Part shown: positions 891 through 47,527 of the stretch, piece by piece
Position numbering within the stretch: the stretch's first letter is position 1
Layout of the letters: each line of letters begins with the position of its first letter
NCBI GenBank assembly: GCA_040218735.1
Contig: JAVJQW010000050.1
Coordinates: 256,001-320,000, forward strand
Reading direction: 5' to 3'
Length of the DNA stretch: 64,000 nucleotides
Source: Deltaproteobacteria bacterium
Lineage (GTDB): Bacteria > Myxococcota > Kuafuiibacteriia > Kuafuiibacteriales > Kuafuiibacteriaceae
Made by a program: the position numbers and the translations under genes
Notes under the pieces: generated by a model
Told to the model about the DNA's origin: nothing
The model's database searches: none
The model's input: the letters and a program-made list of their open reading frames with translations, nothing else

Positions 891-892
891 GA

Positions 893-26667: not shown

Positions 26668-26669
26668 GC

Positions 26670-27395
26670 TCAGCCCCAGCCGATGTCCCGGCCGCGACCC
26701 TGACCGAACATCCCTCCGAAGGGCATCCGGCTCGGCATCTGTGACAGGTGCGGCGCGCGTTGCGCGACGCGACGCGGCCGAGGTGCCGTCTCCTCCTTCG
26801 GGGCACGTTCGATGACGACACCCCCGAACCCACCTTCGGGGTGGAGATCCACGAGCAGCGCCCGCACCGGGTACTCCGTCTCGATGCGCGAAAGCACCCG
26901 CGCCCAGTCGGCCCGCACCGCGTCGGGGCCGCGCCGCAGGTGCACGCCGCCGGTGAGGACCACGCGTGCGTCGTCGCGACTCCAGTCCACGACGCGCATG
27001 ACCTCCTTCGCGAGGTGCTCGATGCCGCGCCGGTCGTCGGGGAGGCCGCCGCAGGTTTGCGCGGAGCCGGAGCAGTTGCAGATGCCCTTGCCGAGGTAGA
27101 CGCCGCTCATGCTCCCGTCCGCGAACGGGAACGGCGCGTTGTTGTCCATGACCACGTCCTGCTGGTCGCGGAAGAACAGATCGGCGCGCAGGGCGTTCCG
27201 CGGATACTTCCGCCGCCCCAAGAAGTCCTGGCTGGGCTCGGGCCCCGCGCTGAGGACGAGGAGCTGGCCCTCCTGCGAGAAGTGCTTGAAATTCCCGTGG
27301 ATCGCCTCCCAAGGGCCGCGGGCCGGGTGGACCTGAACCGGGAAGCGAGGAGCGGTCGGCCCTCCATATTGTGGGCCTACGCCTACAGTGCGCAC
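26670..27395 (-). CDS. Hypothetical protein without signal peptide
   Basis: GAGG RBS with GTG start; 241-aa ORF fills the gap between two real genes. Confidence 0.65.
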   Translation of the reverse strand: MRTVGVGPQYGGPTAPRFPVQVHPARGPWEAIHGNFKHFSQEGQLLVLSAGPEPSQDFLGRRKYPRNALRADLFFRDQQDVVMDNNAPFPFADGSMSGVYLGKGICNCSGSAQTCGGLPDDRRGIEHLAKEVMRVVDWSRDDARVVLTGGVHLRRGPDAVRADWARVLSRIETEYPVRALLVDLHPEGGFGGVVIERAPKEETAPRPRRVAQRAPHLSQMPSRMPFGGMFGQGRGRDIGWG

Positions 27396-27401
27396 ACCTC
27401 T

Positions 27402-27427
27402 TTATCGCGGCGCGCGGACCTGGGTTG
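27402..27427 (-). promoter_or_regulatory. Candidate sigma28/FliA-WhiG-like promoter (CAAC-N16-CGATAA)
   Basis: Minus strand reads CAACccaggtccgcgcgccgCGATAA just upstream of the RBS of 26670..27395. Confidence 0.45.
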
Positions 27428-27483
27428 TGCGATTCGAACGTCCAGGTTCGGCCCCGGGGGAGGCCGAATGACCCAACCGCCGG

Positions 27484-28785
27484 TCAGATCATGACGCTGG
27501 CGTCGTCGATCGAGATCTCGCCGGTCAGCTGACCGCGTTTCTTGAGGCGGTCGTCGCTCATCGCGTCGAGCGCTTCGCGGACCTCGGGGTGCGACGCGAG
27601 CATCTGCTGGAAGTCCTCCTTCGGGAGGAACAGCACCTCGCCCACGGATGTCGCGGTAACCGTCGCGTTGGTCGGCTGCGCACGCAACAGCGAGATCTCA
27701 CCGAACACGTCGCCGCCGCGCAGCCGCGCGAGCTCGGTGACCCCGGCGCCTTCCTTCGTCGTGACGCGGTGCTCACCGCGGAGGATCAGGTACAGGCCGC
27801 GCCCGGCTTCGCCCTCTTCGATGAGGATGTCGTCCGGGAACACCTTCTGCGGCTTGAACTTGGACATCAGCGCGCGCCGGTCCGGCTTCGACAGCGGACG
27901 GAACAACGCGCTGGTCGCCGCGAGGTTCGCGAGGAAGCGTCCGCGCGTGAACTTCTTCAGCGCGAGCTTCACGCTCTCGAGCTCTCCCGCGTGCTCCTCG
28001 AGATCACGACGCGACAGCTCCAGCAGATCCACGTCGCCCTGCGCGACCACCGTCGCGGCGCGCGGCGCGTTCGACACCAACGCCATCTCGCCGAACACCG
28101 CGCCCTGGTGCAGGTGCGCGAGGACGGTGTCCTGCCCCTTCACCTTCTTCGAGACGATCACCACGCCGTCGGCGAGCATGAAGAACGAGTCGCCCGCCTC
28201 CCCTTCCGTGATGATGTGCTCGCCGTTGGTGTGGCGCTTCAGGCGCAGGCTCCCGAGCACACGGATGAACGCGTCCTCGGCGAGGTGCGAGAAGAGCGGG
28301 ATCAGCGGGAAGCGCGCGGGCACCTCCGTGATCGCGTCGGTGTCGGCCGCGATCTTCGCCGCGGTCTCGAGCAGCGAGGGCGCTTCGATCGGCGGGATGT
28401 GCGGCGCCGGCGCGCCGTCCGGGAGCGGCAGCGGCTCCGGAAGGTCGATGTCCCCGACGCGGTCCGACTCCGACGAGTACAGCTCCGCGAGGATGTAGAG
28501 CAGGTCGTCGTAGGACGGGTCGAGCGCGAGCACCATCTTGCAGACCACCAACCCGAGGAGCGGATAGCCGGCCTTGATGTAGTGCCAGGCGAGGCCCTTG
28601 TAGACCTCCTTCGCCCGCTCCTTGTCGCCGAGGTTCAGCAGCGTATCCGCGACGCGGTACCGCGCACGCGTGAACTTCGGCGCGACCTGGATGACCGCGA
28701 GGTACTCACGCAGCGCGTCCTCGTAGCGTCCGGCCGAGAACATGGACTCGGCGCTTGCGTACAGCTCCGGGAGGGTCGTCGCCAT
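27484..28785 (-). CDS. TPR plus two cyclic-nucleotide-binding domains
   Basis: EGEAGDSFF...FGEMAL..APRAATV and EGEAGRGLY...FGEISL..QPTNATV. Confidence 0.92.
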   Translation of the reverse strand: MATTLPELYASAESMFSAGRYEDALREYLAVIQVAPKFTRARYRVADTLLNLGDKERAKEVYKGLAWHYIKAGYPLLGLVVCKMVLALDPSYDDLLYILAELYSSESDRVGDIDLPEPLPLPDGAPAPHIPPIEAPSLLETAAKIAADTDAITEVPARFPLIPLFSHLAEDAFIRVLGSLRLKRHTNGEHIITEGEAGDSFFMLADGVVIVSKKVKGQDTVLAHLHQGAVFGEMALVSNAPRAATVVAQGDVDLLELSRRDLEEHAGELESVKLALKKFTRGRFLANLAATSALFRPLSKPDRRALMSKFKPQKVFPDDILIEEGEAGRGLYLILRGEHRVTTKEGAGVTELARLRGGDVFGEISLLRAQPTNATVTATSVGEVLFLPKEDFQQMLASHPEVREALDAMSDDRLKKRGQLTGEISIDDASVMI

Positions 28786-28802
28786 CGCGACGGACTATAG
28801 AT

Positions 28803-29441
28803 CTAGCTCGTAGCGCCGTACACCCGCGTCAGAAGCTCTTCGATCACCTCGTCTTCGACCAGGTGCGGCTGCACCGGGCGTCGCACGGACGTCATCAGGA
28901 GGATCAGCTTCGGCACGGTCACGCGACTCGTCGCGATGAATGCGGTCTCGTCCGACACGAACACCACCACCGCGCGCTCCCGACGCGCGAGGTGTTCGTC
29001 GAGGGTCTTCGCGTCCTCGACGCACAGGTTCAGCGTCGCGAACTCCCGCGCGACCGCGCGTTTGTACGGGGTCGACGGCAGCTCCGACGTCTCGAGCGGG
29101 TCCTTGCCGAGCGACTCGATCTCGTCCTCGACGCGGCGCAGCTCCATCAAGAGGCGCGGCACGTCCTCCCGCCCCGGCGACGGCTTGAACGCGTCTTCGC
29201 GCACGAACGCGTGCGCGCGCCCGCGGCGCCCGCCGCCCAACGCGAGCTCGCCGATGCGCGCTTCGCTCCCCGCCTCCAGGCTCACCGTGTCGCCGACGGA
29301 CACCGTCGTCCCCACCGCGAGCGGCACCGCCGCCTTCTGCGACTGCGGGACGAGGTGCCCGCGGCCGACGAGATCCACGACCACCACCGGCTCCGCGATC
29401 CGGTGCAGGTCGACGATCGACGTGTCCGGTCGTCCGGTCAT
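28803..29441 (-). CDS. Hypothetical protein
   Basis: ATGA overlap with the upstream HEAT gene; operon context. Confidence 0.65.
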   Translation of the reverse strand: MTGRPDTSIVDLHRIAEPVVVVDLVGRGHLVPQSQKAAVPLAVGTTVSVGDTVSLEAGSEARIGELALGGGRRGRAHAFVREDAFKPSPGREDVPRLLMELRRVEDEIESLGKDPLETSELPSTPYKRAVAREFATLNLCVEDAKTLDEHLARRERAVVVFVSDETAFIATSRVTVPKLILLMTSVRRPVQPHLVEDEVIEELLTRVYGATS

Positions 29442-31081
29442 TCGAGCCACCCCATCGTCACCAGCTTGTTCTTCGCCATGCGGCGCAGCTTGGTGTCCTT
29501 CTCCCCTTCGGCGATCGCCATGAGGATGTCGCCGCCGAGCCCCTGCCCGGCGGAGTCGCCCTCCGCGAGCGAGAAGCCGAGGTAATACAGCTCCTCCTCG
29601 CCGAGGATCGGCTCCTGCTGCAGACGCTCGAGCAGCGGGAAGTCACGCACCTCGAGCAGACGCGCGAACGTCGTCAGGCAGGGGTCCGACTTCTTGCCGC
29701 GCGAGATCACGCGCCGCGACGACTTGAGCTCACAGACACCGAGCTGGAACCGCGCCTCCGCGTCGTCCTTCGACCGGACGATGCGCTTGAACAGCTCCGT
29801 CGCGTCGCCGTACTGGCCGCGCTTCTTCAGCTTCGACGCGCGGTCGAACAGCGTCTCGTTCACCCGCCCCGCGCTCTCGCCACCCACCTGCTTCAGCAGA
29901 TCGATGATCACCGGGGACACGTTCTCGTCCGCGTCGATCACCGCCTCTTCCAAGAACGCGAGCGTCGGCGGCATCAGCTCCGTCGCGCGGGTCTTGAGCC
30001 CGTTTGCAACCTGCCTTGCCTTGTCGCCGTCCGTCATCGCCGCGAGGGTCTTCGTCAACGCGGTGCGCCCGTTCGGCGTGGTGAGCGCGGCCTCCAACGC
30101 GAGCTCGCGGTCCGTCGGGTCGCCGTTCGCCACGACCTCGCCGAGCACCTTCGCGGCCGGCGCCATGTCCACGCCGCCGAGCGCCCGAATCGCGAACCGC
30201 CGCACTGGTGTCCGCTCGCTGGAAGTCAGCTTGCGCACGCGCGGCTCCAGCGCGATCGGGAGCCCCATGTGCACGAGGGTGTCCGCCGCGGGCCCGAGGA
30301 TCGCGGTGGGGGTGTCGTCCGACTCGATCACGCCGAGCAGCGTCTCGTACGCCCGCTCCGAGGTCTTGCGACCCTGCACGATGCCGCGCAGCAGCTCGAG
30401 CGCACGGATGCGCGCGTCGTCCGAGAGCGGCGCCGCCGCGATCCGCACCAGCGGCGCTGCGCTCGCCTCGTGTTTCACCACCCCGATCAGCTCCGCGAGC
30501 GTGATCGCGAGGTCCTCGTTGTCGGCGAGCTCCGTCTCCGCGACACGGCCGAGTCGATCCACCGCCGACTGCGCGTCACTCGCGTCGAGCGCCTCGAGGA
30601 TCGGCGTGAGCGCGCGGCGCGCGGCGTCGAGGATCGCGCCGGTGCCCGTGGGCAGCTCGCCGATGATCTTCTCCTGCGCGGCCCGCGTGCCCATCGCACC
30701 GAGCACCGCGATGGCGCCGATCTTCTGCTTCTCGTCGCGGGCGAGCATCGTCGCGACGTCGTCTTCCGTGACGCCCCGCCCGGACGCGAGGACCTGCTTC
30801 GCCTTCTCGCGGACGTTTTTGTTCGGGTCCTCGAGGAGCGGGCGCAGGTCGTCGACGATCGAGCGCGGTGCGATCTCCCCGATCGCCTCCGCGGCCGCCG
30901 CGCGGAGCTTGGCGTCCTCTTTGTTGCGCGTCGCGCGACGTAACCCGTCGAGCACGCGAGTCTCGTCGATCGCGAGCACGCCGAGCACGATCGCCGCCGC
31001 GGTGCGACGGTCACTGGCGCTGTCGTCGAGCAGCGCGAGGATCTTGTCGACGTGGTCCTTCGATTTCTTGCCGCTGGCCAT
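29438..31081 (-). CDS. HEAT-repeat protein
   Basis: Repeats such as RAAAAEAIG, LLEDPNKNVREKA, VRRFAIRALG. Confidence 0.85.
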   Translation of the reverse strand: MASGKKSKDHVDKILALLDDSASDRRTAAAIVLGVLAIDETRVLDGLRRATRNKEDAKLRAAAAEAIGEIAPRSIVDDLRPLLEDPNKNVREKAKQVLASGRGVTEDDVATMLARDEKQKIGAIAVLGAMGTRAAQEKIIGELPTGTGAILDAARRALTPILEALDASDAQSAVDRLGRVAETELADNEDLAITLAELIGVVKHEASAAPLVRIAAAPLSDDARIRALELLRGIVQGRKTSERAYETLLGVIESDDTPTAILGPAADTLVHMGLPIALEPRVRKLTSSERTPVRRFAIRALGGVDMAPAAKVLGEVVANGDPTDRELALEAALTTPNGRTALTKTLAAMTDGDKARQVANGLKTRATELMPPTLAFLEEAVIDADENVSPVIIDLLKQVGGESAGRVNETLFDRASKLKKRGQYGDATELFKRIVRSKDDAEARFQLGVCELKSSRRVISRGKKSDPCLTTFARLLEVRDFPLLERLQQEPILGEEELYYLGFSLAEGDSAGQGLGGDILMAIAEGEKDTKLRRMAKNKLVTMGWLE

Positions 31082-32217: not shown

Positions 32218-35200
32218 ATGGCGAGCGGATCCACCAGACCAGCGCAGCTCGGCGGCGACAACGTCATCCGCTTCCTCGACTGCGCACATTTCCTCCAGGA
32301 GCTCGCCGGGAACCTCGGTCGAGGACGTGCCCTCGTGCGCACGCGCCGGAGCTTCGAGCTGGGCGAGCGCTTCACCGTGGACGTCGAGGCGCCGGGGGTG
32401 GCGTGGCGCGTCGAGGTCGACGTGCGCGTCGTCTTCTCCCGCAGCGGGTTCGTCGGTCTGGAGCTCGAGCGCTTCGACGAGGCGCTCTCCGCGCTGGATC
32501 GGCTCGGGGAGGCCGCAGAGCGCGCGGACGACGACGTCGAGGACGAACGACCGCCCGTACCTACCGCGCCCGGGCCGGCCGTGCTCAGCGCCGAGAAGAC
32601 CCTCGTCGCCCCCAACCCGGTGATGAACCTCGGCGATGCGTTCACGCCGCTGGGCGATCCACCGCGGACCGGCGAGGCGCAGATCCACATCCGCGAGGAG
32701 GACGAAGCCGAGACCGGTGAGTTCCCCATCCTCCCCGGTGATCCCGTCCCGGATCCCGCGGAGACCGGATCCGTGCGGGTGCCCAACCGCGCGGCGACGA
32801 TCGTCGAGACCGACCTCGTCGCCGCACCGCCGACGAACCGGCGACGACGCCCGCGGGTCTCGACACCCCCGGAGCGCGGCCTCTCGGATCCCGCGCCCGG
32901 CGGTCGGCCGCGCCCCCGGGATCGGATCGACACTTCGACGCAGGACTCGGTCGACATCCCGACCGGTGACGTCCCGGATCCCGCGGAGCACGCGACGCGT
33001 TCGTTGCCGGCCGCGCGACCGGACGCGCCGGCGGCGCCGTCGTCTCGACCCGACGTCCCCATGGCGCCCTCGCTCGCGCTCGACACGAGCGTGCCCATCG
33101 CCCCGTCGCGCAGCGCGCCGCCGCCGGACAGCACCACGGTCGCGTCGGAGAGCTCACGTCCTCGCGCCGCGACCGTGCAGGCGCGGACGGAGTCGCTGTC
33201 GAACTACGAGATCCCTCCGCCGGAGCTCGGCGGATCGGCGATCGTGATGAACCCGCTGCTCGAGGCCGCGCCGGCGGAGGCCACCGCCGACGACGTCGAC
33301 GCGCGCATCATGGAGCCGCCATCGGCGGACGCGGACGTCACGTCCGACGACGTCGACGCTCAAGCCCCGACCCCTGAGGCGACGCCGACGCCCGCGCCGA
33401 GCCTCTCGGACGACCTCGACCTCGACGTGCCGAGCCTCCCCGCGCCCGACGCGGTCCCCGTCGACAACCTCGAAGCGCTCGAGGACGACGACGTGCGGCT
33501 CCCGCGGGTGACCGAGGATGGCCGGGTCGATCTCGCGGACCCCGCGGACCTGCTCGCGCTCTACCTCGGCCAGATTCGGCACGGCACGCTGACGCTCTAC
33601 GGGTCGCTGACCAAGGACGCCGGCGACACGGTGCGGCTCACCATCGAGGGCCCCAACGCGGTCGAGATCGAGGCCCTCGTGATGGCGCGCGTGGGGCCGT
33701 GGTTCACGTTCGCCGTGCCGGACCCTCGCCCGGTCGAGGCCGTGTTGAGCGCGAACGTCGTCCATTGGAAAGAATCCATTGAAGCGCTCGCCGAGAACTA
33801 CCTCGAGGAGAGCGACGAACGGCGCCGCGAAATCGCCGAGCCGGAGCCCGAGCCGTCGCTCGAGGAGAGCGCGACGGCGGACGACTCCGCGCCGCCCCCG
33901 CCCGAGGACCCGATCGTCCCGCCGCCGCCGATCGAGGTGACCGCGGACGACGTCGAGGAGGAGGAGCCGGTGGTCCTCGTTCCGGCGGCGCCCCCGGAGC
34001 CGGAGCCGGAGCCCGAGCCCGAACCCGAGCCGGAGCCCGAGCCCGAGCCGGAACCGGAGCCCGAGCCCGAGGGGGATCCGGATCGCGCGCCGCGCGTGCC
34101 GAAGCTCGACGGGACGAACGTGCGCTTCGATCACACGATCGATCTCGAGCACGAGCTGAAGGTGAACCTCGCGAACGGCGGGCTGTTCGTCGAGGCGGCC
34201 CCCATCCCGATCCGCGAGCGGCGGCGCCTGAAGATCCACATCGGCGACAAACCCACCGGCGTCACCATCGAAGCCGACGTCGTGTTCGCGAGCGGCGGCA
34301 AGGTCGGCTTCTCCGTCCCCGCGTCGGCCGAGGCGCAGACCCAGCTGGAGGAGTACCTCCGCACCGGGACCGCGCAGCCCAGCTCCACGCCGCTGCCGAG
34401 TGAGTCCCCGGTGCCCACCTCCGGGACCCCCGAGCCGCTCCCGCCCGAGCGCGAGGCCTCGGTCGGTGGCGCCTTCGGTGGTGACCTCCTCGCGCCGCTG
34501 TCGATCTCCCAGATCCTCGGGCTGGAGCAGAAACGCGCGTCGTCGACCGCGGACCTCGAGAAGACCTCGGCGGTGCAGCTGATCGAGTACCTCGTCCGTC
34601 AGGGCGAAAAGGGTGTGCTCATGATCCGCGGCCCGCAGCGCACCCAGACGATCTGGTTCCACGGCGGCAGCGTCGCGTACATCCTCGACGAGCCCTTCGA
34701 CGAGGCCACGAGCCTCGGCCGCGTCCTCATCACCCAAAAGAAGCTCAACGACGCCGCGCTGCGCGAGGGCCTCGAGAAGGCGAAGGCGAGCAAGAAGCCC
34801 CTCGGCCGCACGCTCGTCCTCCTCGGCACGATTCGAAAAGCGGAGCTCACCGCGGCGCTCCGCGAGCAGGCGCGCCTCAAGATGGACTACACGTTCGCGA
34901 CGAAGTCCGGGCACTTCGAGTTCGGCCCCTGGCAGGAGCCGCCCGGCAACGCCGACCTCGTCGTGACCAAGGGCCTCGGTCTCCTCGCGCGGTACCTCCG
35001 CAGCCGCTACGACGAGTACAACTACCAAGAGCTCGAAGCGATCTTCGGCGCCAACATGAACCGGCGCGTCGAGCACGAGACCGACTTCGAGAGCATCGCG
35101 ACGAGCCTTCAACTCCAACCCAAGGAGCTTCGATTCCTCGAGCTGTCCCTCGACGGCCACCGTACGATCCACGACGCGGTCCTCGGCAGCCCCGCCGGTC

Positions 35201-35760
35201 GCCTCGGCTCACTCCGCCTGGTCGGCATGTGCCTCAGCATGGCGCTGATCCGCTTCTCGGACGGCAACGCCGTTCGGCGCGAGAAGACGCAGGTCGGCCG
35301 CGAGCCGAGCGCCTTCGTCCGCGTGAAGAACGAGCTGGACGAACGCCTCACGCTGCTCGAGGGCATGAACCACTTCGAGGTGCTCGGCGTGCACTGGTCC
35401 GCGCACCACCGCAACTACCGCGAGGCCTACGACAACGCGAAGCGCGAGTTCAACCTGCGCCGCTCGCCCTACAAGGACGCGCCGGACGACGTGAAGAAGA
35501 AGGTCCAGCGCATCGTGCAGATCCTCGACCAGAGCTACACGACCCTCAACGACGCCACCCAGCGCGTCTCCTACCGCAAGCAGCTCTTCGACAAGACCGA
35601 ACGCCAGTACGCCGCCGAGATGCTCGTGAAGCAGGGCGAGGTCGCGCTCATGCGCGGCGACCGCGTCGGCGCCATCGAAGCCCTGGAGACCGCGGTCGAG
35701 CTCGACCCCTCGACCCGCAACCGCAACCTCCTCATGAGCGCCCGCGAAGGCCGCCGGTAG
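32218..35760 (+). CDS. Multidomain protein: PilZ-like domains, Pro/acidic linkers, DUF4388, J-like domain, TPR
   Basis: NLANGGLFV PilZ-like motif, IWFHGGSV..SLGRVLI DUF4388-like, NHFEVLGV J-like helix, C-terminal TPR. Confidence 0.8.
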   Translation: MASGSTRPAQLGGDNVIRFLDCAHFLQELAGNLGRGRALVRTRRSFELGERFTVDVEAPGVAWRVEVDVRVVFSRSGFVGLELERFDEALSALDRLGEAAERADDDVEDERPPVPTAPGPAVLSAEKTLVAPNPVMNLGDAFTPLGDPPRTGEAQIHIREEDEAETGEFPILPGDPVPDPAETGSVRVPNRAATIVETDLVAAPPTNRRRRPRVSTPPERGLSDPAPGGRPRPRDRIDTSTQDSVDIPTGDVPDPAEHATRSLPAARPDAPAAPSSRPDVPMAPSLALDTSVPIAPSRSAPPPDSTTVASESSRPRAATVQARTESLSNYEIPPPELGGSAIVMNPLLEAAPAEATADDVDARIMEPPSADADVTSDDVDAQAPTPEATPTPAPSLSDDLDLDVPSLPAPDAVPVDNLEALEDDDVRLPRVTEDGRVDLADPADLLALYLGQIRHGTLTLYGSLTKDAGDTVRLTIEGPNAVEIEALVMARVGPWFTFAVPDPRPVEAVLSANVVHWKESIEALAENYLEESDERRREIAEPEPEPSLEESATADDSAPPPPEDPIVPPPPIEVTADDVEEEEPVVLVPAAPPEPEPEPEPEPEPEPEPEPEPEPEPEGDPDRAPRVPKLDGTNVRFDHTIDLEHELKVNLANGGLFVEAAPIPIRERRRLKIHIGDKPTGVTIEADVVFASGGKVGFSVPASAEAQTQLEEYLRTGTAQPSSTPLPSESPVPTSGTPEPLPPEREASVGGAFGGDLLAPLSISQILGLEQKRASSTADLEKTSAVQLIEYLVRQGEKGVLMIRGPQRTQTIWFHGGSVAYILDEPFDEATSLGRVLITQKKLNDAALREGLEKAKASKKPLGRTLVLLGTIRKAELTAALREQARLKMDYTFATKSGHFEFGPWQEPPGNADLVVTKGLGLLARYLRSRYDEYNYQELEAIFGANMNRRVEHETDFESIATSLQLQPKELRFLELSLDGHRTIHDAVLGSPAGRLGSLRLVGMCLSMALIRFSDGNAVRREKTQVGREPSAFVRVKNELDERLTLLEGMNHFEVLGVHWSAHHRNYREAYDNAKREFNLRRSPYKDAPDDVKKKVQRIVQILDQSYTTLNDATQRVSYRKQLFDKTERQYAAEMLVKQGEVALMRGDRVGAIEALETAVELDPSTRNRNLLMSAREGRR
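33994..34071 (+). repeat. (Pro-Glu)x13 hexanucleotide repeat
   Basis: CCSGAR tandem units inside the CDS. Confidence 0.9.
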
Positions 35761-35785: not shown

Positions 35786-37420
35786 CTACAGCTGCGCGAG
35801 CAGGGACGTCTCGAACCACCCGCTCGTGTCGCCCTTCACGGCGTCCTGCAGCGACTCGCCGTACATCGCCTCGTAGGCCTTGGCCGTGGCCGCCAGCTGG
35901 CCCTTGCTCCGCTTCCCGAGGATCCGGATCAACGCCGCCTCGTCCGTGCCCCACCCGTCGATCGCCTGGTGCAGCGCGACGGCGTCGCGCGTCGCCTGGG
36001 CCTGGTCCACGGTGCCGCTCTCGTCGCGGTTCCCGCTCGCGAGCGTGAGGAGCATCGTCTCGAGGTCGCCGCTCGTGTCGCCCTTGATCGCGTCGTCGAG
36101 CGACTCCCCGAACATCTCCTGGTACGCCGAGCGAATCGCGCGGATCTCCCGGTTCGTCCGGTTCGAGAGCACGTCGATCAGCTTCTGCTCGTCCGTGCCC
36201 AGCCCGTCGATCGCCTCGTGCAGCGCAACCGCATCGCGCGTCGCCTTGCCCTTGTCGACCCGCGGCGCACCGCCGGCCGTCATCTGCCCCTGCAGTCGCC
36301 CGTTCGAGCGGCGCGCCGCGAGCTCGGCGCGCAGGTCGACGCGCTTCGGCGCCGCCTTCTTCGGCGCGGTGTCCGCGCGCTTGAGCTGCGCCAGCAGCGA
36401 GTCCTCGAAGTCACCGCTGGTGTCGCCCTTGATCGCGTCCTCCAGCGACTCGCCGTACATCTCCTGGTACGCCTTCGCGATCGCCTTCAGCTGCGGGCCG
36501 CTCCGTCCGCTGATGATGCGGTTGAGCGTCGCCTCGTCGGTGCCCCACCCGTCCATCGCCTCGTGCAGCGCCGCCGCGTCGCGCGTGGCCGCGTTCTCGT
36601 CGACCTTCCCCGACTCGTCCCGGTTTCCGCGGAGCATCGACAAGAGTGAGTCCTCGAAGTCACCGCTGGTGTCGCCCTTGATCGCGTCCTCCAGCGACTC
36701 GCCGTACATCTCCTGGTACGCCGCCTTGATCGCGTTGATCTGCGTGTTGCTGCGGCCGCTGAGGATGCGCGTCAGCGCGGCCTCGTCCGTGCCCCACCCG
36801 TCCATCGCCTGGTGCAGCGCGACGGCGTCGCGGGTCGCCTGCGCCTGGTCCGCCTTCTGCGCGACCTTCGCTTGCTGCGCCTGCGCGGCGACGGGGATCG
36901 GCGCCGCGCGCACCGCGGGGCGCTGCGCCGGCGCGCGGCTCGGCGCCTGACGCTGGTACAGCTGCGCGAGGCGATCGAAGTCGACCGCGCCCTGCCCGCC
37001 GATCGACTGGTAGAACGGTTGGTAGAACTGCGCCGCGGTGATCAGCTGCGTCAGCATCTCGGCCGCCGCCTGCGCCGTGCGCGGGTCGACGCCGAACGCG
37101 ATGAAGAACCGCGCGAAGTCGGTGGTGTCGAGCGCGCCGAGGCGCGGGTCGTAGAACGGGATCTGCTGATTCGGACGCGGCGCTCGACCGCGGAGGTCGC
37201 GCGCGATGGCGTCGCCGAGCGGGGCCGCCTCGATCTGATCGAAGCCGGACTGCGTGAGGATTACGACGTAGTGCTGGCGCTCGGCTTCGGAGCCACCCAT
37301 GCGAATGCGCAGGTCGTCGGCGCGCGCGGGGGAGCCGGCCAGGCGCGCGTTCGCGGCGGAGTGGCTGGAGCGGGCGTGGACGCTGCGAGGGTTGAGTGCG
37401 GTGTGCGTTTCGATGGCCAT
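35786..37420 (-). CDS. Annexin with four repeats and a long N-terminal extension
   Basis: Four copies of DAxALHxA(M/I)DGxGTDE...L..AIKGDTSG; AGGAGG RBS. Confidence 0.93.
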   Translation of the reverse strand: MAIETHTALNPRSVHARSSHSAANARLAGSPARADDLRIRMGGSEAERQHYVVILTQSGFDQIEAAPLGDAIARDLRGRAPRPNQQIPFYDPRLGALDTTDFARFFIAFGVDPRTAQAAAEMLTQLITAAQFYQPFYQSIGGQGAVDFDRLAQLYQRQAPSRAPAQRPAVRAAPIPVAAQAQQAKVAQKADQAQATRDAVALHQAMDGWGTDEAALTRILSGRSNTQINAIKAAYQEMYGESLEDAIKGDTSGDFEDSLLSMLRGNRDESGKVDENAATRDAAALHEAMDGWGTDEATLNRIISGRSGPQLKAIAKAYQEMYGESLEDAIKGDTSGDFEDSLLAQLKRADTAPKKAAPKRVDLRAELAARRSNGRLQGQMTAGGAPRVDKGKATRDAVALHEAIDGLGTDEQKLIDVLSNRTNREIRAIRSAYQEMFGESLDDAIKGDTSGDLETMLLTLASGNRDESGTVDQAQATRDAVALHQAIDGWGTDEAALIRILGKRSKGQLAATAKAYEAMYGESLQDAVKGDTSGWFETSLLAQL

Positions 37421-37451
37421 GAATCCTCCTGGATGGTGTGCCCGATGCCTT

Positions 37452-37467
37452 TACAAGGTCCGGGCCA
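37452..37467 (-). promoter_or_regulatory. Candidate sigma54 (-24/-12) promoter for the annexin gene
   Basis: Minus strand TGGCCC-GGACC-TTGTA versus consensus TGGCAC-N5-TTGC; the -12 GC is GT. Confidence 0.5.
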
Positions 37468-37540: not shown

Positions 37541-37630
37541 ATTGGGAACCCCTGCGCGACAGCGTGGTCGGCGTGGGCGGCACCCCTCCACCGCCGGTCC
37601 ACAGCGCGCGGCGAGGTGCCATCGCCTGCT

Positions 37631-39367
37631 ATGTTAGTGCCGTTGAGCTTCGAGACGTTACCGCCGACCGAGCGCGCGCCGGTGTCGGCCGAGCGCAAGA
37701 CGGACGCTCCGCTCTCCCTGCTCGTCATCGTCGAGGAGGGCGTGTCGACGCACCCGCTGACGGTGGGAATGCAGCTGTCGATCGGGCGTGAGCCCACCGT
37801 CGACGTCCACGTCGACGATCCGCTCGTCTCCCGCGAGCACGCGCGCCTGTACGTGCGCGACATCGTCGAGCTCGAAGATCTGGGGAGCGCCAACGGCACG
37901 AAGATCCGCGGGCAGCGCGTCGTCGCGCACGAGAAGACGCCGATAGGCGCCGGGCAGGTCGTGGAGATCGGCTCGGCGATCCTCGTGCTGCAGGAGCAGA
38001 GCACGGTCGCCCGGAGACGCCGCCTGTGGTCCCACGGCTACTTCGAGGTTCGCCTCGAAGAGGAGTGCGCGCGCAACGCACGCGGGCGTCGTTCGCCGTT
38101 CGCCGTGCTGCGCGTGCGCGTCGACGCCGCGGACGACGAGACGCTCGTGCAAGACACGTTGACGAAGGCGCTCCGCTCCTCGGACGTCGTCGCGAGCTAC
38201 GCCCCCGGTGAGTACGAGCTGCTCCTCGTCGACACCGCCGCGTCGCGCGCGGAGCGCATCGCCGATCGCATCTCGGACCGCTTCGTCGAGGCCGGCCACC
38301 GCATCGAGATCGGCATCGCGTCGTTCCCCCGCGATGGCCTCACCGCGGACGCGCTGATCGCCCACGCGGGGATCGACCTCGCGCTCGACGAAGACACGGC
38401 GCCCTCCTCGGCCGCGGTCGTCGAGGACCCGGCGATGGTCGATCTGTACCGCGTCGTCGATCGCGTCGCGCAGGGGACGATCAGCGTCCTGCTCGTCGGC
38501 GAGACCGGCGTCGGCAAGGAGGTCGTCGCCGAGGCGCTGCACCGCCGCTCACCGCGCGTCGACGCCCCGTTCGTGCGCCTCAACTGCGCCGCGCTCACGC
38601 AGACCCTCGTGGAGTCGGAGCTGTTCGGCCACGTCCGCGGCGCGTTCACCGGCGCCGAACAAGACAAACGCGGCCTGATCGAAGCCGCCGACGGCGGCAC
38701 GGTGTTCCTCGACGAGGTCGGCGAGCTCCCGCTGCCCACGCAAGCTACCTTGCTCCGCGTCCTCGAGCGCCGCGAGGTCCAGCGCGTGGGGAGCCTGGAG
38801 CCGCGCCCGGTCGACGTGCGCTTTGTCTCCGCCACGAACCGCGACCTCGAGGAGGAGATCGCGCGCGGGCGTTTCCGCGAGGATCTCTTCTACCGCCTCA
38901 ACGGCGTCACCATCGCGATCCCTCCGCTCCGCGATCGCCCCGGGGAGATCACATTGCTCGCGAGGATGTTCGTGGATCGCGTCAGCCACGAGCTCGGCGT
39001 GGAGGCCCCCGCGCTCTCCACGCGCGCCGAAGCGCTCCTCGGCGGCTACCACTGGCCGGGCAACATCCGCGAGCTCCGCAACATGATCGAGCGCGCGGTC
39101 CTGCTCTGCACGGGAGACGTCCTCGACGCTGAGCACCTCCCCGTCGACAAACTCTCCGCGACCTGGTCGAGCACTCCCGCGCGCCCTCGCCGACCGCGTG
39201 CGACGTCGGCGAGCCCGGAGCACGACGAGCGCAAACAGCGCATCCTCGACGCGCTGGACGCCTGCGCCGGCAACCAGACCCGCGCCGCCGAACACCTCGG
39301 CGTCTCCCGACGCACGCTCACGAAGTGGCTCGGCCGCTACGACATCCCCCGGCCCCGCAAACGCTGA
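37631..39367 (+). CDS. Sigma54-dependent enhancer-binding protein (FHA, degenerate GGDEF-like, AAA+, HTH)
   Basis: IGR..VSREHA..DLGSANGT (FHA), GETGVGKE, GAFTGA, FREDLFYRL, GNQTRAAEHLGVSRRTL. Confidence 0.95.
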   Translation: MLVPLSFETLPPTERAPVSAERKTDAPLSLLVIVEEGVSTHPLTVGMQLSIGREPTVDVHVDDPLVSREHARLYVRDIVELEDLGSANGTKIRGQRVVAHEKTPIGAGQVVEIGSAILVLQEQSTVARRRRLWSHGYFEVRLEEECARNARGRRSPFAVLRVRVDAADDETLVQDTLTKALRSSDVVASYAPGEYELLLVDTAASRAERIADRISDRFVEAGHRIEIGIASFPRDGLTADALIAHAGIDLALDEDTAPSSAAVVEDPAMVDLYRVVDRVAQGTISVLLVGETGVGKEVVAEALHRRSPRVDAPFVRLNCAALTQTLVESELFGHVRGAFTGAEQDKRGLIEAADGGTVFLDEVGELPLPTQATLLRVLERREVQRVGSLEPRPVDVRFVSATNRDLEEEIARGRFREDLFYRLNGVTIAIPPLRDRPGEITLLARMFVDRVSHELGVEAPALSTRAEALLGGYHWPGNIRELRNMIERAVLLCTGDVLDAEHLPVDKLSATWSSTPARPRRPRATSASPEHDERKQRILDALDACAGNQTRAAEHLGVSRRTLTKWLGRYDIPRPRKR

Positions 39368-39383
39368 GGTATGATCGCCGCGC

Positions 39384-40715
39384 GTGCGGCGCTTCGGTGA
39401 GTTCGCGCTGCTCGAGCGCCTCGAGCAGGGATCGGGCGGGACGGTCCACCTCGCCCGTCGCATCGGCGCGCCCCAGGACCACGACCCGCTCCTCGTGGTG
39501 AAGCGCCTCCACTCGGACCTCATGGAGCACGACACCTTCGTGCGCCGCTTCTCCCACGAAGCGCTGATCGCGGTGTCGGTGAAGAGCCCGAACGTCGTGG
39601 TCGTCGAGGACGTCGGGCGCGTGGGCGACGAGCCGTACATCGCGATGCACTTCGTGGAGGGGCTGTCGCTGTACGAAGTGCTCGAGCGCGTCACCGCCGC
39701 GGGCTACGGCATCCCGCTCGACGTCACCGTCGCGATCGTCGCGGGGTGCCTGGGCGGCCTCCGCGCGCTGCACGACGCCATCCACCCGGACACCCTCGAA
39801 CCCCTCGGCGTGGTCCACCGCGACATCTCCCCGAAGAACATCGTGCTCGCGTTCGACGGGCACCCCGTGCTGATCGATCTGGGCCTCGGGAAGTCGAATG
39901 TCGCCGACTGGCAGACCGCGGCCGGCGACGTCCTCGGGTCCCTCGGCTACATGGCGCCCGAGCAGGTCCTCGGCGACCGCGTCGATCACCGCGCGGATCT
40001 GTTCTCGCTGAGCGCCGTGTTCTACGAGCTGCTCACGCTCGAGCCGTACGTCCCGCGCGGCGCGCGGCGCGACATGCTGCGGCGGATGGAGTCGCCGCCC
40101 CCGGCCCGCCTCGACCGCGAAGACGTGCCGATGCCGATCCGCGCCCTCCTCGAGTCGGGCCTGTCCTACGACCCGAACCAGCGCCCGGCGAGCGCCGCGG
40201 AGATGTACGATCGGCTCACCTCGGTCATCGCCCCCGCGACACCGAAGCTCGTGGCCGCGTTCGTCCGTGACCTCGTCGGCGAAGACCTGCGCTCGACCGC
40301 GAAGAACGTCGACGACCTGAAGTCGCAGCCGATCGCGTTCCCCGACGACACCCCCTACGAAGGCACGGTGGTGATCGCGCGACGCGAGTCCGCGGTGAAC
40401 ACCATCGACGACCTCGAACCCGAGAGCGACGACCCGACCGCGCTCGTCGTCGCCCACGATCGCCCCAAGATCGCGGACGCCACGCTGCGTGCGCCGCCCG
40501 ACACCGTCCTCGGAGACGACACCGACAGCCTCCTGCAGGCGCAGACCCGTATCACGGCACGGCCGCGAGCGACCGGAGTACCGTGGGCGGTCGTGCTGCT
40601 GTTGATGGTGCTCGTGGCGGCCGCGACGGTGTTCGTGGATCGCTTCGTCATCGGCGTCGAAGCGCCGGCGCCGACCGCCGAGCCTCCGCCCACCGTCTCC
40701 GCGACGCCGCGGTGA
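39384..40715 (+). CDS. Hanks-type Ser/Thr protein kinase with C-terminal TM helix
   Basis: VVKRL, HRDISPKN, IDLG, GYMAPEQ. Confidence 0.92.
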   Translation: MRRFGEFALLERLEQGSGGTVHLARRIGAPQDHDPLLVVKRLHSDLMEHDTFVRRFSHEALIAVSVKSPNVVVVEDVGRVGDEPYIAMHFVEGLSLYEVLERVTAAGYGIPLDVTVAIVAGCLGGLRALHDAIHPDTLEPLGVVHRDISPKNIVLAFDGHPVLIDLGLGKSNVADWQTAAGDVLGSLGYMAPEQVLGDRVDHRADLFSLSAVFYELLTLEPYVPRGARRDMLRRMESPPPARLDREDVPMPIRALLESGLSYDPNQRPASAAEMYDRLTSVIAPATPKLVAAFVRDLVGEDLRSTAKNVDDLKSQPIAFPDDTPYEGTVVIARRESAVNTIDDLEPESDDPTALVVAHDRPKIADATLRAPPDTVLGDDTDSLLQAQTRITARPRATGVPWAVVLLLMVLVAAATVFVDRFVIGVEAPAPTAEPPPTVSATPR

Positions 40716-43806: not shown

Positions 43807-43851
43807 AACGCCTTCTGCGGTGCGGACGCTTTGATATCCTCCACCACCACA

Positions 43852-45147
43852 ATGCCTCCCCGACGCCCTCCGGGCCCCGTCGACGACGGCGCCTCGCTCC
43901 TCACCTCGATCCGCTTCTACCGCGACATGACCCGCGACTCCCTCGGCACGATGCGCCGACGGTTCGAGCGGTACGGGGACCTGTACTTCAACGTCAGCCG
44001 GGGGGATCCGCTGTTCGTCACGCGGCACCCCGATCACGCGTACCAAGTGCTCGTCGCCGGGGCGAAGGCGTTCGGGAAGCGGAGCGACCTCGAGCCGTTC
44101 CTCGGGCAGGGGCTCCTCGAGGCGAACGGCGCGGTGTGGCGGCGGCAGCGGCGGCTGATGCAGCCGTCGTTCTCCGCGCAGCGGATCGCCGCGTACCGCG
44201 ACATGATGATCGAGGAGACCGAGAAGCGCATCGCGACGTGGGCGGACGGCGAGACGCGCGACATCGACGCAGACATGATGGCGCTGACGCTCGCGATCGT
44301 GTCGCGCGCCCTCTTCTCGCACGAGGCCGACGACGCCGAGACGGTGTCGAAGGTGATGACCGTGTTCCAGGAGGCCGCGACCGGGCTCGACCTGTTCCCG
44401 TCCTGGCTCCCCACGCCGCTGCACCGCCGTCAGGCTGCCGCGCTGAAGGCGATGGACGACCTCGTGTACGGCGTCATCGACGGGCGCGACATCGACCAGG
44501 ACCACGAAGACCTGCTGCAAGATCTCTTGCACGCGAGTGACGCCGAAGGCGGCATGTCGCGGAAGCAGGTGCGCGACGAGCTCGTCACGATGTTCCTCGC
44601 AGGACACGAGACGACCTCGCTCACGCTGATGTGGACGTTCTACCTGCTCGCGAAGCACCCCGAGATCGAGGCGCGCGTCTACGAGGAGGTCGCGGCGGCG
44701 GAGTCGTTCGACCGCCTCCCCTTCACCGCGAACGTCCTGAAGGAGTCGATGCGTCTGTACCCGCCCGCGTACGTCGTGCCGCGCGTCGCGATCGAGGACA
44801 CCGAGCTCGGCGGCTACACCCTCGAGCGCGGGGCGGAGGTCGTGGTGTGGATCTACTTCTGCCACCACGACGAACGCTGGTTCACGGAGCCGGAGCGCTT
44901 CGACCCGGATCGGTTCGCAGAGGGGAGCGACCGCGTGAAGCACCCGCACGCCTACCTCCCGTTCGGCGCCGGGAGCCGGACGTGCATCGGGCGGCACTTC
45001 GCGTCGTTCGAAGCCCAGCTCCTCCTCGCCACGATCGTGAAGCACTTCTCGCTGTCGCTGGCGCCCGACGCCAACGTGGCGATGAATCCGCGCATCACAC
45101 TCGGCGCGAAACACGGGATGAAGATGGTCGTGCGCGATCGGGGTTGA
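43852..45147 (+). CDS. Cytochrome P450
   Basis: AGHETT, ESMRLYPP (ExxR), PERFDPDRF, FGAGSRTCIG. Confidence 0.97.
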   Translation: MPPRRPPGPVDDGASLLTSIRFYRDMTRDSLGTMRRRFERYGDLYFNVSRGDPLFVTRHPDHAYQVLVAGAKAFGKRSDLEPFLGQGLLEANGAVWRRQRRLMQPSFSAQRIAAYRDMMIEETEKRIATWADGETRDIDADMMALTLAIVSRALFSHEADDAETVSKVMTVFQEAATGLDLFPSWLPTPLHRRQAAALKAMDDLVYGVIDGRDIDQDHEDLLQDLLHASDAEGGMSRKQVRDELVTMFLAGHETTSLTLMWTFYLLAKHPEIEARVYEEVAAAESFDRLPFTANVLKESMRLYPPAYVVPRVAIEDTELGGYTLERGAEVVVWIYFCHHDERWFTEPERFDPDRFAEGSDRVKHPHAYLPFGAGSRTCIGRHFASFEAQLLLATIVKHFSLSLAPDANVAMNPRITLGAKHGMKMVVRDRG

Positions 45148-45165
45148 CGCCCCGGGCGGAGATCG

Positions 45166-45186
45166 ATTAGTTGCTATAGCAACAAA
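45166..45186. promoter_or_regulatory. MarR operator candidate 1
   Basis: Perfect palindrome GTTGCTATAGCAAC (45170-45183) next to the marR start. Confidence 0.8.
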
Positions 45187-45630
45187 GTGCGGAAGGTTCG
45201 GATCACCGACTCGCTCGCGTACCACGTGTACCGGAGCGCCCGGCTGCTACGGCGGCACTTCCTGTCGATGGCGACGAGCCTCGACATGGAGCTGACACAG
45301 GAGCAGTGGTTCGTGCTCAACAAACTCGTGCTGGAGGACGGGCGGAGTCAGGTGGATCTGGGCGAAGAGATCTTCGCGGATCGCCCCAACCTCACCCGCA
45401 TCCTGACCACGATGGAGCGGCGCGGGCTGGTGCGGCGGCGGCCGGACGAGGAGGACGGGCGGCGAATCCGTGTGTTCCTCACGGCCGACGGGCGACGGCA
45501 CCACGACGAGTTCGCGGCTATCGTGCCCAAGGCGCGCAGCCAGCTGTTCGCGGGCATCACGAAGGAAGACCTCGAGACGGCGATTCGAGTCCTGGCTCGG
45601 CTCGAATCCAACCTGGTGAAGGACGACTGA
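45187..45630 (+). CDS. MarR-family transcriptional regulator
   Basis: LTQEQWFVL, NLTRILTTMERRGLVRR, DGRRIRVFLT. Confidence 0.93.
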   Translation: MRKVRITDSLAYHVYRSARLLRRHFLSMATSLDMELTQEQWFVLNKLVLEDGRSQVDLGEEIFADRPNLTRILTTMERRGLVRRRPDEEDGRRIRVFLTADGRRHHDEFAAIVPKARSQLFAGITKEDLETAIRVLARLESNLVKDD

Positions 45631-45655
45631 GCCCCGTCCCAAAAAAATTTGCAGC

Positions 45656-45676
45656 ATTAGTTGCTATAACAACAAA
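45656..45676. promoter_or_regulatory. MarR operator candidate 2
   Basis: ATTAGTTGCTATAACAACAAA, 20/21 identical to 45166-45186. Confidence 0.8.
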
Positions 45677-45691
45677 AGGAATCGAACGAAG

Positions 45692-46138
45692 ATGAAGACC
45701 TCGAAAGCACAGTTCCTCGTGACCACGATGATGGCTGGCGCCTGCGTCAGCTCGACCACCCCGGCGACCGCGGGTGCGCCGGACGACGCCATCACGGCGG
45801 CCGTTCGCGCCTACGTGAAAGGCGGCGACGCGCAGGATCGCGCGCAGGTCGAGAAGATCACCCACGCCTCCTTCCGCGTCATCGCGTCGATGGGCGGCGC
45901 GGGCGACGCCTCGTTCATGTCGCGCGACGACTACCTCGGTCTCCTCGACGCCAAGAAGATCGGAGGCACCCCGCGCACCGTGAAGGTCGAGTGGACCAAG
46001 TCGCTGGGCAACGTCGCCAACGTGAAGGTGCAGCTCGAATCGAAGGCGGCGCGCTTCGACTCACTCTTCACGCTGGTGAAGAAGGACGGCCGCTGGGTCG
46101 TCGTCGAAGACGTCGTCCGCCTCGACAAGAAGGGCTAG
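45692..46138 (+). CDS. NTF2-like (lumazine-binding/SnoaL-like) exported protein, possible lipoprotein
   Basis: AGAC lipobox-like, YVKGGD, ANVKVQL, LFTLVKKDGRWVV. Confidence 0.8.
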   Translation: MKTSKAQFLVTTMMAGACVSSTTPATAGAPDDAITAAVRAYVKGGDAQDRAQVEKITHASFRVIASMGGAGDASFMSRDDYLGLLDAKKIGGTPRTVKVEWTKSLGNVANVKVQLESKAARFDSLFTLVKKDGRWVVVEDVVRLDKKG

Positions 46139-47135: not shown

Positions 47136-47513
47136 TCAGTCGGTCTTCATCGTGACCTTGGCGACGTGCGTCGCACCGAGGATGACGGTCTCGCCGCCCG
47201 TCGGACGGAGCCGCGCCTGCATCGAGAAGTCGCGCTGGTCGGAAGCGCCGTGACGCTGCGCGGTGACGTTCACGGAGAGGAGCCCCCTCGCCTCGCGGCA
47301 GACGTCGAGCTCGTAGCGGTCGTTGGGCGTGCCTTGTTTCATGCGGCTGCACTCACCTTCGACGCGCACCGTGAGTGGGACGTCGTCGACCGTAACGGTC
47401 ACCGCGAGTGGTCCGCCGATGCGCGGGCCTTCCGTGGACGCGTCGCAGAGGGTGGCCGCCGCGGCGGCCGTCGCGCCGAGCGCGATGAATGCAGAGAGGA
47501 TGAGGTACTTCAT
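47136..47513 (-). CDS. Small secreted hypothetical protein
   Basis: Signal peptide MKYLILSAFIALGATAAAA, beta-rich body. Confidence 0.7.
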   Translation of the reverse strand: MKYLILSAFIALGATAAAAATLCDASTEGPRIGGPLAVTVTVDDVPLTVRVEGECSRMKQGTPNDRYELDVCREARGLLSVNVTAQRHGASDQRDFSMQARLRPTGGETVILGATHVAKVTMKTD

Positions 47514-47527
47514 GGCGCGCGTCGAAG

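Follow-up and report, generated by a model that had tools for sequence, protein, structure and literature searches.

Annexins are regarded as essentially eukaryotic proteins, and their solved core consists of two two-repeat modules, formed by repeats I/IV and II/III. As far as its available text goes, the survey of bacterial members by Kodavali et al. (2014; PMC3894181) comprises 34 proteins from 17 species with 1-5 recognisable annexin domains, frequently combined with a protease, lipase or toxin domain or with a membrane anchor. In the same text these proteins are described as remote from their eukaryotic counterparts (~40% identity over ~50 residues, 'no strong similarities'), the [RKH]G[DE] motif is reported for only two of them, the tryptophans of GWGTD motifs are noted, myxobacteria are among the hosts, and pairs or fours of domains are suggested as the working unit (PMC3894181). 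In 2016, a study considered, in its accessible part, bacterial annexin domains too divergent to place (PMC4863580), and prokaryotic annexins are described as hypothetical, or as too divergent for placement, in later texts as well. Here, we describe an annexin gene at positions 35786..37420 (minus strand) of a stretch of 64,000 nucleotides from a Deltaproteobacteria bacterium (contig JAVJQW010000050.1; hereafter the window). Its product, P0001, belongs to a bacterial family with repeats as canonical as those of vertebrate annexins.

We conclude that P0001 is a native bacterial '2+2' annexin, composed of a head and two half-annexin modules on a basic tether that is predicted to be flexible. It is a member of the annexin superfamily, lacks the canonical I-IV core and differs from the bacterial annexins published so far. 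The main text of PMC3894181, as available, does not mention a 2x(II-III-like) design with the head of P0001, and our literature search, with subscription journals outside its coverage, returned no report of a 2x(II-III) annexin design and, as work devoted to bacterial annexins, the 2014 survey alone. For an annexin specialist, the 2+2 design is somewhat surprising.

Four annexin repeats with complete calcium-site motifs

P0001 comprises 544 amino acids and was translated from the longest open reading frame at positions 35786..37420 on the minus strand. Two features speak for the start codon, the sequence AGGAGG located 4 nucleotides upstream and the N-terminus MAIE, which is common to the relatives P0002 and P0003. 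The gene and the elements of its annexin core are located as follows.

35786..37420, minus strand: annexin gene encoding P0001, 544 codons plus stop (longest open reading frame, translation, Pfam, G+C content at third codon positions (GC3) of 0.95)
37425..37430, minus strand: Shine-Dalgarno sequence AGGAGG, 4 nucleotides before the ATG (from sequence; identical in the related locus L001)
36638..36838, minus strand: repeat R1, residues 195-261, GWGTDE at 208, cap D250 (repeat hidden Markov model (HMM), motifs)
36590..36637, minus strand: intra-unit connector 1, residues 262-277, GNRDESGKVD, II-III type (motif, spacing of 83, linker comparison)
36389..36589, minus strand: repeat R2, residues 278-344, GWGTDE at 291, cap D333 (repeat HMM, motifs)
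36257..36382, minus strand: inter-unit basic linker, residues 347-388, net charge +8, predicted to be disordered (charge count, predicted local distance difference test (pLDDT))
36044..36244, minus strand: repeat R3, residues 393-459, GLGTDE at 406, cap D448 (repeat HMM, motifs)
35996..36043, minus strand: intra-unit connector 2, residues 460-475, GNRDESGTVD (motif, linker comparison)
35795..35995, minus strand: repeat R4, residues 476-542, GWGTDE at 489, cap D531 (repeat HMM, motifs)

The Pfam family Annexin (PF00191) matches P0001 in four stretches with an E value of 9.8e-102 and 333.5 bits at a curated cut-off of 25, and annexin A13 from frog scores 339.4 bits with the same library. On sequence grounds, the membership of P0001 in the annexin superfamily is certain. 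Annexin is the only Pfam domain above its curated cut-off in P0001, and neither PADLOC nor NCBIfam yielded a match.

Scanning with regular expressions located the motif G.GT[DE]E at residues 208, 291, 406 and 489 (three times GWGTDE, once GLGTDE) and the motif KGDTSG at residues 248, 331, 446 and 529. In all four repeats the Asp residue of KGDTSG lies 38 residues past the Thr residue of GxGT, giving the sets G208/T211-D250, G291/T294-D333, G406/T409-D448 and G489/T492-D531. A GxGT loop followed by an acidic residue 38 positions after the Thr is what we take to be the canonical type II calcium site with its bidentate cap, and by these motifs each of the four repeats would carry such a site. Moreover, every repeat has a hydrophobic residue at the loop tip, which is Trp in three repeats and Leu in one. 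The same scan found GNRDESG.VD at residues 265 and 463, where it joins R1 to R2 and R3 to R4, respectively, and the linker between the two halves (residues 347-388) contains 11 Lys and Arg residues versus 3 Asp and Glu residues. Thus, the main sequence features proposed in an initial annotation of this DNA were recovered at the expected places, namely four repeats with intact GxGTDE and KGDTSG motifs, GNRDESGxVD between repeats 1-2 and 3-4, and a basic linker between the halves.

Two copies of a II-III-type unit

The repeats of P0001, located with an HMM built from its own four repeats, start at spacings of 83/115/83 residues. In 45 stored four-repeat proteins of 300-400 amino acids with a eukaryotic appearance, the corresponding spacings are 72 (I-II), 83 as both median and minimum (II-III) and 76 (III-IV). 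In 45/45 of these annexins, II-III is the window to which both units of P0001 (residues 191-346 and 389-544) align with the highest score; the mean raw scores of the two units are 318 and 297 (II-III), 254 and 230 (I-II) and 262 and 223 (III-IV). In addition, a search of the PDB sequences aligned residues ~195-355 of the query to residues 94-254 of annexin VI. The connector reads GGRDESGVVDHDAATRDA in insect annexin B11, GNRDESMAVD in a nematode annexin and GNRDESGKVDENAATRDA in P0001, and on the basis of this comparison we regard the intra-unit linker as homologous to the eukaryotic II-III connector.

When residues 187-350 were modelled alone (15 aligned sequences), the model reached a pLDDT of 90.1 and a predicted template modelling score (pTM) of 0.81. 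It superposes on annexin III (1aii) with a query TM score (TMq) of 0.92 and a root-mean-square deviation (rmsd) of 1.0 Å over 156 columns at 44% identity. Among the best 30 matches to solved annexins the TMq ranges from 0.86 to 0.92 and the rmsd from 1.0 to 1.8 Å, and the superpositions listed cover 153-158 columns at no more than 44% identity. Both this model and that of the full-length chain contain five helices per repeat, and the five-helix bundle of annexin repeats is present in P0001 by prediction only. Likewise, each half is predicted to represent a II/III-type module, with the long RDE...VD connector and, by prediction, tight packing. The initial annotation had described the protein as a duplicated two-repeat unit with a linker resembling the connector between repeats II and III of eukaryotic annexins. 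The first statement is borne out by the spacing, by the preference for the II-III window and by the superposition on solved annexins, the second by the spacing of 83 and the B11-like sequence; the predicted structure of the core agrees with both.

The model of the full-length protein (18 sequences) has a mean pLDDT of 72.4 and a pTM of 0.35. The pLDDT falls below 50 at residues 1-42, 57-68, 78-83, 159-183 and 351-386, and the tether formed by residues 351-386 is predicted to be flexible. In colinear superpositions on four-repeat annexins (Foldseek), the full-length model reached only a target TM score (TMt) of 0.21-0.26 at an rmsd of ~18 Å, and it contains no canonical disc. Hence, P0001 does not possess the canonical eukaryotic core, that is a four-repeat disc of I/IV and II/III modules with spacings of ~72/83/76.

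A bacterial family with the 2+2 plan

The closest relatives of P0001 are P0002 (81% identical, 550 amino acids, four repeats), P0003 (464 amino acids) and P0004 (98% identical, partial). P0004 bears the public name 'MAG: annexin, partial [Deltaproteobacteria bacterium]' (MAG, metagenome-assembled genome), and homologues of P0001 are already auto-annotated as 'annexin' in public records. The succession of head, unit, linker and unit was likewise found in P0005, P0006, P0009 and P0121, which are 44-50% identical to the core of P0001, as well as in four Xenobia-type proteins, one of them named from Candidatus Xenobiia (phylum Vulcanimicrobiota), in two Gastranaerophilales-type proteins (Melainabacteria) and in three further proteins. 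The spacings of 13 of the 17 relatives fit a pattern of 82-88/85-175/82-88 residues; the exceptions are P0202 (103/110/101), P0003 and P0004 with three repeats each, and P0121, a truncated fragment. P0001 follows the same plan, with a variable head, a unit of 82-88, a variable linker and a second unit of 82-88, and the head regions of 2+2 annexins differ completely between lineages. Since the head-unit-linker-unit plan recurs in relatives from several bacterial lineages, we conclude that the 2+2 annexins are a bacterial family, which is present in at least three bacterial lineages.

In P0003, encoded at positions 2174..3568 of the related locus L001, and in P0004 exactly one period of 83 residues is missing between R1 and R2, and the junctions differ. 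This loss may reflect unequal crossing-over or a collapse of near-identical repeats during assembly of the MAGs. The title of the L001 record gives a coverage of 0.89. No complete stand-alone two-repeat bacterial protein was present among the 8 half-annexin candidates examined out of 120 listed matches (137 matches, 401 candidates); besides two bacterial proteins with three repeats, these 8 comprised fragments and pieces of eukaryotic origin.

Repeat history and phylogeny

The repeats of P0001 are 58-78% identical to each other, and the closest pair is R1-R2 (78%) rather than R1-R3. R1 and R2 share an identical run of 75 nucleotides, which spans positions 36648-36722 in R1 and recurs in R2 at an equal offset, one period of 249 nucleotides downstream. 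None of 20000 shuffles of the mismatch positions reached a run of this length, and this identity therefore indicates a recent gene conversion between R1 and R2.

A tree of di-repeat units (43 rows, 151 columns) placed the first and the second unit (U1 and U2) as sisters within each bacterial lineage, and a tree with all U1 set against all U2 was rejected (log-likelihood difference 306.6, p of the approximately unbiased test 2e-33), a grouping that we named after seeing the tree. By these sequence data the halves would accordingly have been either homogenised within lineages or duplicated independently in each of them. First- and second-position repeats retain a weak signature across lineages, by which 34/44 held-out repeats were assigned correctly, and this signature favours an old pair that conversion between entire units has kept uniform. 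Against the eukaryotic repeats I, II, III and IV, the first-position profile gave the higher score in 1, 24, 9 and 8 of 45 cases, respectively. These counts are compatible with repeat II being of the first type and repeat III of the second type but do not fit a simple permutation model.

All trees are unrooted, and their eukaryotic rows are metazoa plus a few other eukaryotes. In the tree of 43 rows, 22 bacterial units are separated from 21 eukaryotic II-III units by one branch with a support of 96/95. After addition of a plant unit on a long branch (length 2.5), one bacterial and one metazoan unit (46 rows), the split was kept in the best tree with a support of 49/2 and was present in 60% of the bootstrap trees. 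In no unit tree were the bacterial units nested inside the metazoa. A per-repeat tree (91 rows, 67 columns, quick method) grouped the eukaryotic repeat III (11/12, support 94) and placed repeat IV on one side of a branch (support 74). In this tree the bacterial repeats are grouped according to lineage and side with none of the eukaryotic positions; its deep forks are not resolved, and the per-repeat comparison suggested in the initial annotation cannot decide on the origin of the repeats.

An N-terminal head domain with homologues of its own

The part of P0001 that precedes the annexin core can be divided into three segments.

37301..37420, minus strand: residues 1-40, tail with a MAIE start, predicted to be disordered (pLDDT <50 for residues 1-42)
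36926..37300, minus strand: residues 41-165, helical head domain with a core at ~79-155 (homologues, pLDDT 52-80)
36851..36925, minus strand: residues 166-190, connector rich in Ala, Pro and Gln, net charge +4 (pLDDT <50 for residues 159-183, charge count)

A start of the type MAIE, MTIE or MAID is common to P0002, P0003, P0005, P0006, P0224 and P0225. An exhaustive, profile-free search with residues 1-190 retrieved 17 library proteins at E<=1e-3. Among them are P0001, which served as the query, two relatives with annexin repeats and two short sequences, P0224 and P0225, which are fragments or proteins consisting of the head only. Nine of the head homologues are stand-alone proteins of 144-270 amino acids, most of them with basic Pro-rich tails, and one (P0233) is fused to a TGL transglutaminase domain. 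A further match, an SLH-domain protein of 1980 amino acids, aligned only at residues 21-81. The core of the head (residues ~79-155; positions 36956..37186 of the window, minus strand) contains the invariant residues R82, P88, G110, P113, Y133, G141 and L151. No family in Pfam, NCBIfam or PADLOC matched the head domain or two of its stand-alone relatives, and structure searches with the head, including the ESM Atlas, returned no usable match, all TM scores being below 0.5. The N-terminal extension of ~190 residues thus lacks a signal peptide, as noted in the initial annotation; it is not featureless, however, as residues ~79-155 constitute a conserved domain. It is plausible that the head is a 'cargo' carried to the membrane by the annexin part, which would take the place of the basic tails of most stand-alone forms.

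Gene neighbourhood and putative sigma-54 control

The annexin gene lies between genes for regulatory proteins, and a sigma-54-like element precedes it.

37453..37467, minus strand: sigma-54-like -24/-12 element TGGCCCGGACCTTGT, 33-47 nucleotides upstream of the annexin ATG (read from sequence)
37628..39367, plus strand: divergent gene for an activator with an FHA domain, a sigma-54 AAA+ domain and a Fis-type helix-turn-helix (Pfam Sigma54_activat 1e-67, FHA 5e-15, HTH_8 1.4e-10)
39384..40715, plus strand: Ser/Thr protein kinase, 17 nucleotides after the activator gene (Pfam Pkinase 1.3e-24)
32218..35760, plus strand: protein of 1180 amino acids, convergent with the annexin gene (N-terminal TIGR02266, PilZ, DUF4388, an MshE-like motif for binding of cyclic di-GMP and a weak match to TPR close to the C-terminal end)

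The conservation of neighbourhood and promoter was assessed at one of three related loci, L001, where the order DUF4388 protein, annexin, FHA activator is likewise found. In L001, 14/15 bases of the TGGCCCGGACCTTGT element are identical and the ribosome-binding region is nearly unchanged; the rest of the spacer has diverged. A scan of positions 35500-37800 revealed neither a sigma-70-like promoter nor an intrinsic terminator. Control of the annexin gene by sigma-54 and the neighbouring activator is a reasonable inference from these elements. FHA-type activators under the control of Ser/Thr kinases occur in Myxococcus, and the adjacent kinase is a candidate input to the FHA domain of the activator. 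A link between sigma-54 regulons and the exterior of the cell has been described, according to the available part of that work (PMC3162934). Because the gene is flanked by genes for a sigma-54 activator, a Ser/Thr kinase and GGDEF, PilZ/DUF4388 and TIGR02266 proteins and resembles its neighbours in GC3, we conclude that P0001 is encoded in a bacterial genome; the longest contig associated with its protein cluster measures 11.5 Mb.

Several further observations were made in the window. The kinase and the activator matched PADLOC through generic domains, which does not indicate a defence system. In the translation of 32218..35760, a long run of (PE)n and a stretch resembling a J-domain can be read. 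Just one site in the window, TGGCACGCGCGTTGC, fits the strict sigma-54 consensus; it is located at 47529..47543 on the minus strand, near the 5′-end of the open reading frame 47136..47612 and also upstream of 46383..47084; neither reading frame belongs to a Pfam family. Second-messenger genes occupy positions 25216..31081 and encode a GGDEF-GAF cyclase, a TPR protein with two cyclic-nucleotide-binding domains, an MshEN-domain protein and a HEAT-repeat protein. At positions 43831..46138 (plus strand) genes for a cytochrome P450, a MarR regulator and a putative lumazine-binding protein follow each other in a row.

Discussion

The data suggest a soluble protein that would respond to calcium inside the cell. 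The features of its sequence support P0001 being soluble and cytoplasmic: it contains no signal peptide, lipobox or transmembrane segment, and the maximum mean Kyte-Doolittle value over 19 residues is 0.83 for the whole chain and -0.07 when the window starts at one of the first 45 residues. By analogy with known annexins, its molecular activity is probably calcium-triggered binding to anionic lipids of the inner membrane, and a role in membrane stress is conceivable, if rather doubtful. In such a mechanism, the gene would be transcribed from the sigma-54-type promoter, driven by the divergent FHA enhancer-binding protein, which would itself probably be under the control of the adjacent Ser/Thr kinase. 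P0001 would remain soluble in the cytoplasm while calcium is at its resting level. Upon a local rise in calcium, for example after envelope damage or in response to a developmental signal, the four AB loops would take up calcium and bridge to phosphatidylglycerol and cardiolipin of the inner membrane, with electrostatic affinity added by the basic tether. As a consequence, the head domain would be drawn to the membrane, which might in addition be cross-linked or patched.

Two other readings concern the place where P0001 acts and the shape that it adopts. As an exported effector, it would leave the cell via vesicles or a contact-dependent system and bind phosphatidylserine-type lipids in the membranes of prey or host. 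Bacterial annexin-repeat proteins fused to toxin- or protease-like domains are described in the available text of PMC3894181, and the proteins encoded by loci L002 and L003 are of that type; moreover, P0001 contains no cysteine, and a large, high-GC, signalling-rich genome with a TIGR02266 domain next door is reminiscent of predatory myxobacteria. Nevertheless, the protein lacks a signal peptide, a lipobox and a transmembrane segment, the annexin matched neither PADLOC nor NCBIfam, and its conserved partners are cytoplasmic regulators. Furthermore, no toxin, protease, secretion-system or immunity gene was found among the 17 flanking proteins scanned, which are regulators and metabolic enzymes, or among the three direct neighbours. 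We thus consider export very improbable, and nothing speaks in favour of the 'delivered effector' that had been proposed in the initial annotation; membrane repair, the other role proposed there, is conceivable. With respect to shape, the two II/III-like modules could dock to form a closed four-repeat disc, a circular permutation (II-III-IV-I) of the eukaryotic core around which the linker would loop. Such an arrangement would fit with solved cores being built from two-repeat modules, both modules of P0001 being of the II/III kind, with the R2-R3 spacing being as short as 85 residues in P0164, close to the intra-unit value of 82, and with the position profiles that placed 34/44 held-out repeats correctly across lineages. 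However, the full-length model with its pTM of 0.35 packs the modules without confidence and offers no colinear four-repeat fit, the R2-to-R3 spacing of the relatives ranges widely, between 85 and 175 residues, and the linker is predicted to be disordered. In addition, a permutation predicts that repeat IV is of the first-position type, whereas the first-position profile scored higher in only 8/45 cases. A predicted complex of residues 187-350 and 385-544, cut from alignment A2, gave a score of 0.00 and speaks neither way on docking. We therefore regard a closed disc as possible but doubtful.

The third alternative concerns the origin of the modules: the II-III half of a eukaryotic annexin might have moved into bacteria, been duplicated there and then spread among bacteria. 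This would agree with repeats as canonical as those of vertebrates (333.5 versus 339.4 bits), when the annexin repeats of the eCIS_core/DUF4157 giants reach 44-90 bits, with an identity of 33-37% between the core of P0001 and annexin A13 over 97-98% of its length, and with a connector that nearly equals that of insect annexin B11. Moreover, the 2+2 group stands out against the remote eukaryotic similarity that is all the available text of the 2014 survey reports (PMC3894181). On the other hand, the bacterial units fall outside the sampled metazoan and other eukaryotic II-III units, with a support that declines from 96/95 in the 43-row tree to 49/2 in the 46-row tree, and the family occurs in MAGs named Deltaproteobacteria, Xenobia (Vulcanimicrobiota), Eremiobacterota and Gastranaerophilales (Melainabacteria), each with a head of its own. 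The composition is likewise native, the GC3 of 0.95 lying within the range of the neighbours (0.83-0.98). Given this GC3 and the absence of mobile elements among the 17 flanking proteins scanned, a recent import of the gene is unlikely. The unrooted tree gives no direction for an ancient transfer, and from its thin sampling an ancient transfer in either direction and common descent cannot be told apart. Overall, the distribution over at least three bacterial lineages, the separate grouping of the units and the native GC3 speak against the derivation from eukaryotes that the initial annotation had assumed, and we consider it unlikely.

Several points weigh against our reading of P0001 as a native 2+2 annexin that acts at the inner membrane. 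AlphaFold has seen annexin structures, and the module fold is therefore partly recall, a supporting argument rather than an independent proof; the full-length model, for its part, gives no information on docking of the two modules. The TGGCCCGGACCTTGT element deviates from the strict sigma-54 consensus at 2 positions, including the GC at -12 (GT here). The relaxed pattern, which has 2 matches in the window versus 0.08 expected, was written after seeing the site, and the conservation of the element is derived from the single related locus L001. The lack of a Sec signal leaves other routes of export, such as vesicles or contact-dependent systems, possible, and the real role of P0001 may lie in its head domain. 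Finally, family membership, motifs, unit architecture, a predicted module fold and a conserved architecture and neighbourhood are what P0001 offers; from these we infer calcium and lipid binding, the cytoplasmic site, the control by sigma-54 and the physiological role.

With these points in mind, we would advance a broader idea, which is speculative and more likely wrong than right by a wide measure. The II/III-type di-repeat would be the ancestral annexin block, kept in the bacterial (pair)x2 proteins, and the eukaryotic tetrad would be a later rearrangement that retained the original connector only at II-III. P0001 would then be the bacterial counterpart of annexin membrane repair, its two independent modules on the basic tether being switched by calcium entry and patching or cross-linking the inner membrane under an envelope-stress circuit of sigma-54, FHA activator and Ser/Thr kinase. 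The sigma-54-dependent phage-shock response follows a similar logic.

The chain of P0001, two copies of the module (II-III) that makes up one half of the eukaryotic core, provides a handle on how the four-repeat core was assembled, with a pair first and a duplication thereafter, with or without permutation. It likewise offers a handle on whether annexin-type, calcium-triggered membrane binding works inside bacterial cells. If the gene were an old eukaryotic import, it would exemplify neatly how a membrane module of eukaryotes can be domesticated under the sigma-54 control of a bacterium.

When compared with the eukaryotic four-repeat annexins (A13, A3, A5, insect B11 and Hydra B12), P0001 shares the repeat family at full strength, the type II site motif in every repeat, the identity to the A13 core given above, the II-III connector with its spacing of 83, a unit model that superposes with a TMq of up to 0.92, and a variable N-terminal head before the conserved core. 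In contrast, their spacing of 72/83/76 is replaced by 83/115/83, with two II/III-type pairs, a long disordered basic tether and no short connector of the I-II or III-IV type. Moreover, the repeats of P0001 resemble each other at 58-78% identity and are kept alike by gene conversion, a canonical disc is not predicted, and the genetic context is bacterial and of the sigma-54 type. Annexin A6 (1m9i) was the top match both in the PDB sequence search (E 3.3e-90) and in the Foldseek search with the full-length model, a rank that is due in part to its eight repeats and to the length window of the searches. Like P0001, it consists of two membrane-binding lobes on a flexible linker; each lobe of A6 is a complete four-repeat core, whereas each lobe of P0001 is a two-repeat module.

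Among bacterial proteins, those of the 2014 survey share with P0001 the annexin repeats and the GxGTD motifs, and they differ, as far as the available text describes them, from its KGD motif in 4/4 repeats, its strong similarity to eukaryotic annexins and its lack of a second Pfam domain (PMC3894181). Thus, P0001 is not of the type characterised by remote similarity and frequent fusion to enzymes, toxins or anchors. The eCIS_core (DUF4157) giants encoded by L002 (positions 461..4555, 1364 amino acids) and L003 (positions 7283..12640, 1785 amino acids), one of which stems from a Myxococcota MAG, likewise contain bacterial annexin repeats with GWGTDE loops, but the repeats are weak (89.5 and 44.1 bits, respectively). 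On reading, their sequences also seem to contain a motif like that of metalloproteases, stretches of hydrophobic residues and extended C-terminal regions. The giants are polymorphic-toxin-like proteins of the kind described in the 2014 survey and form a family separate from P0001.

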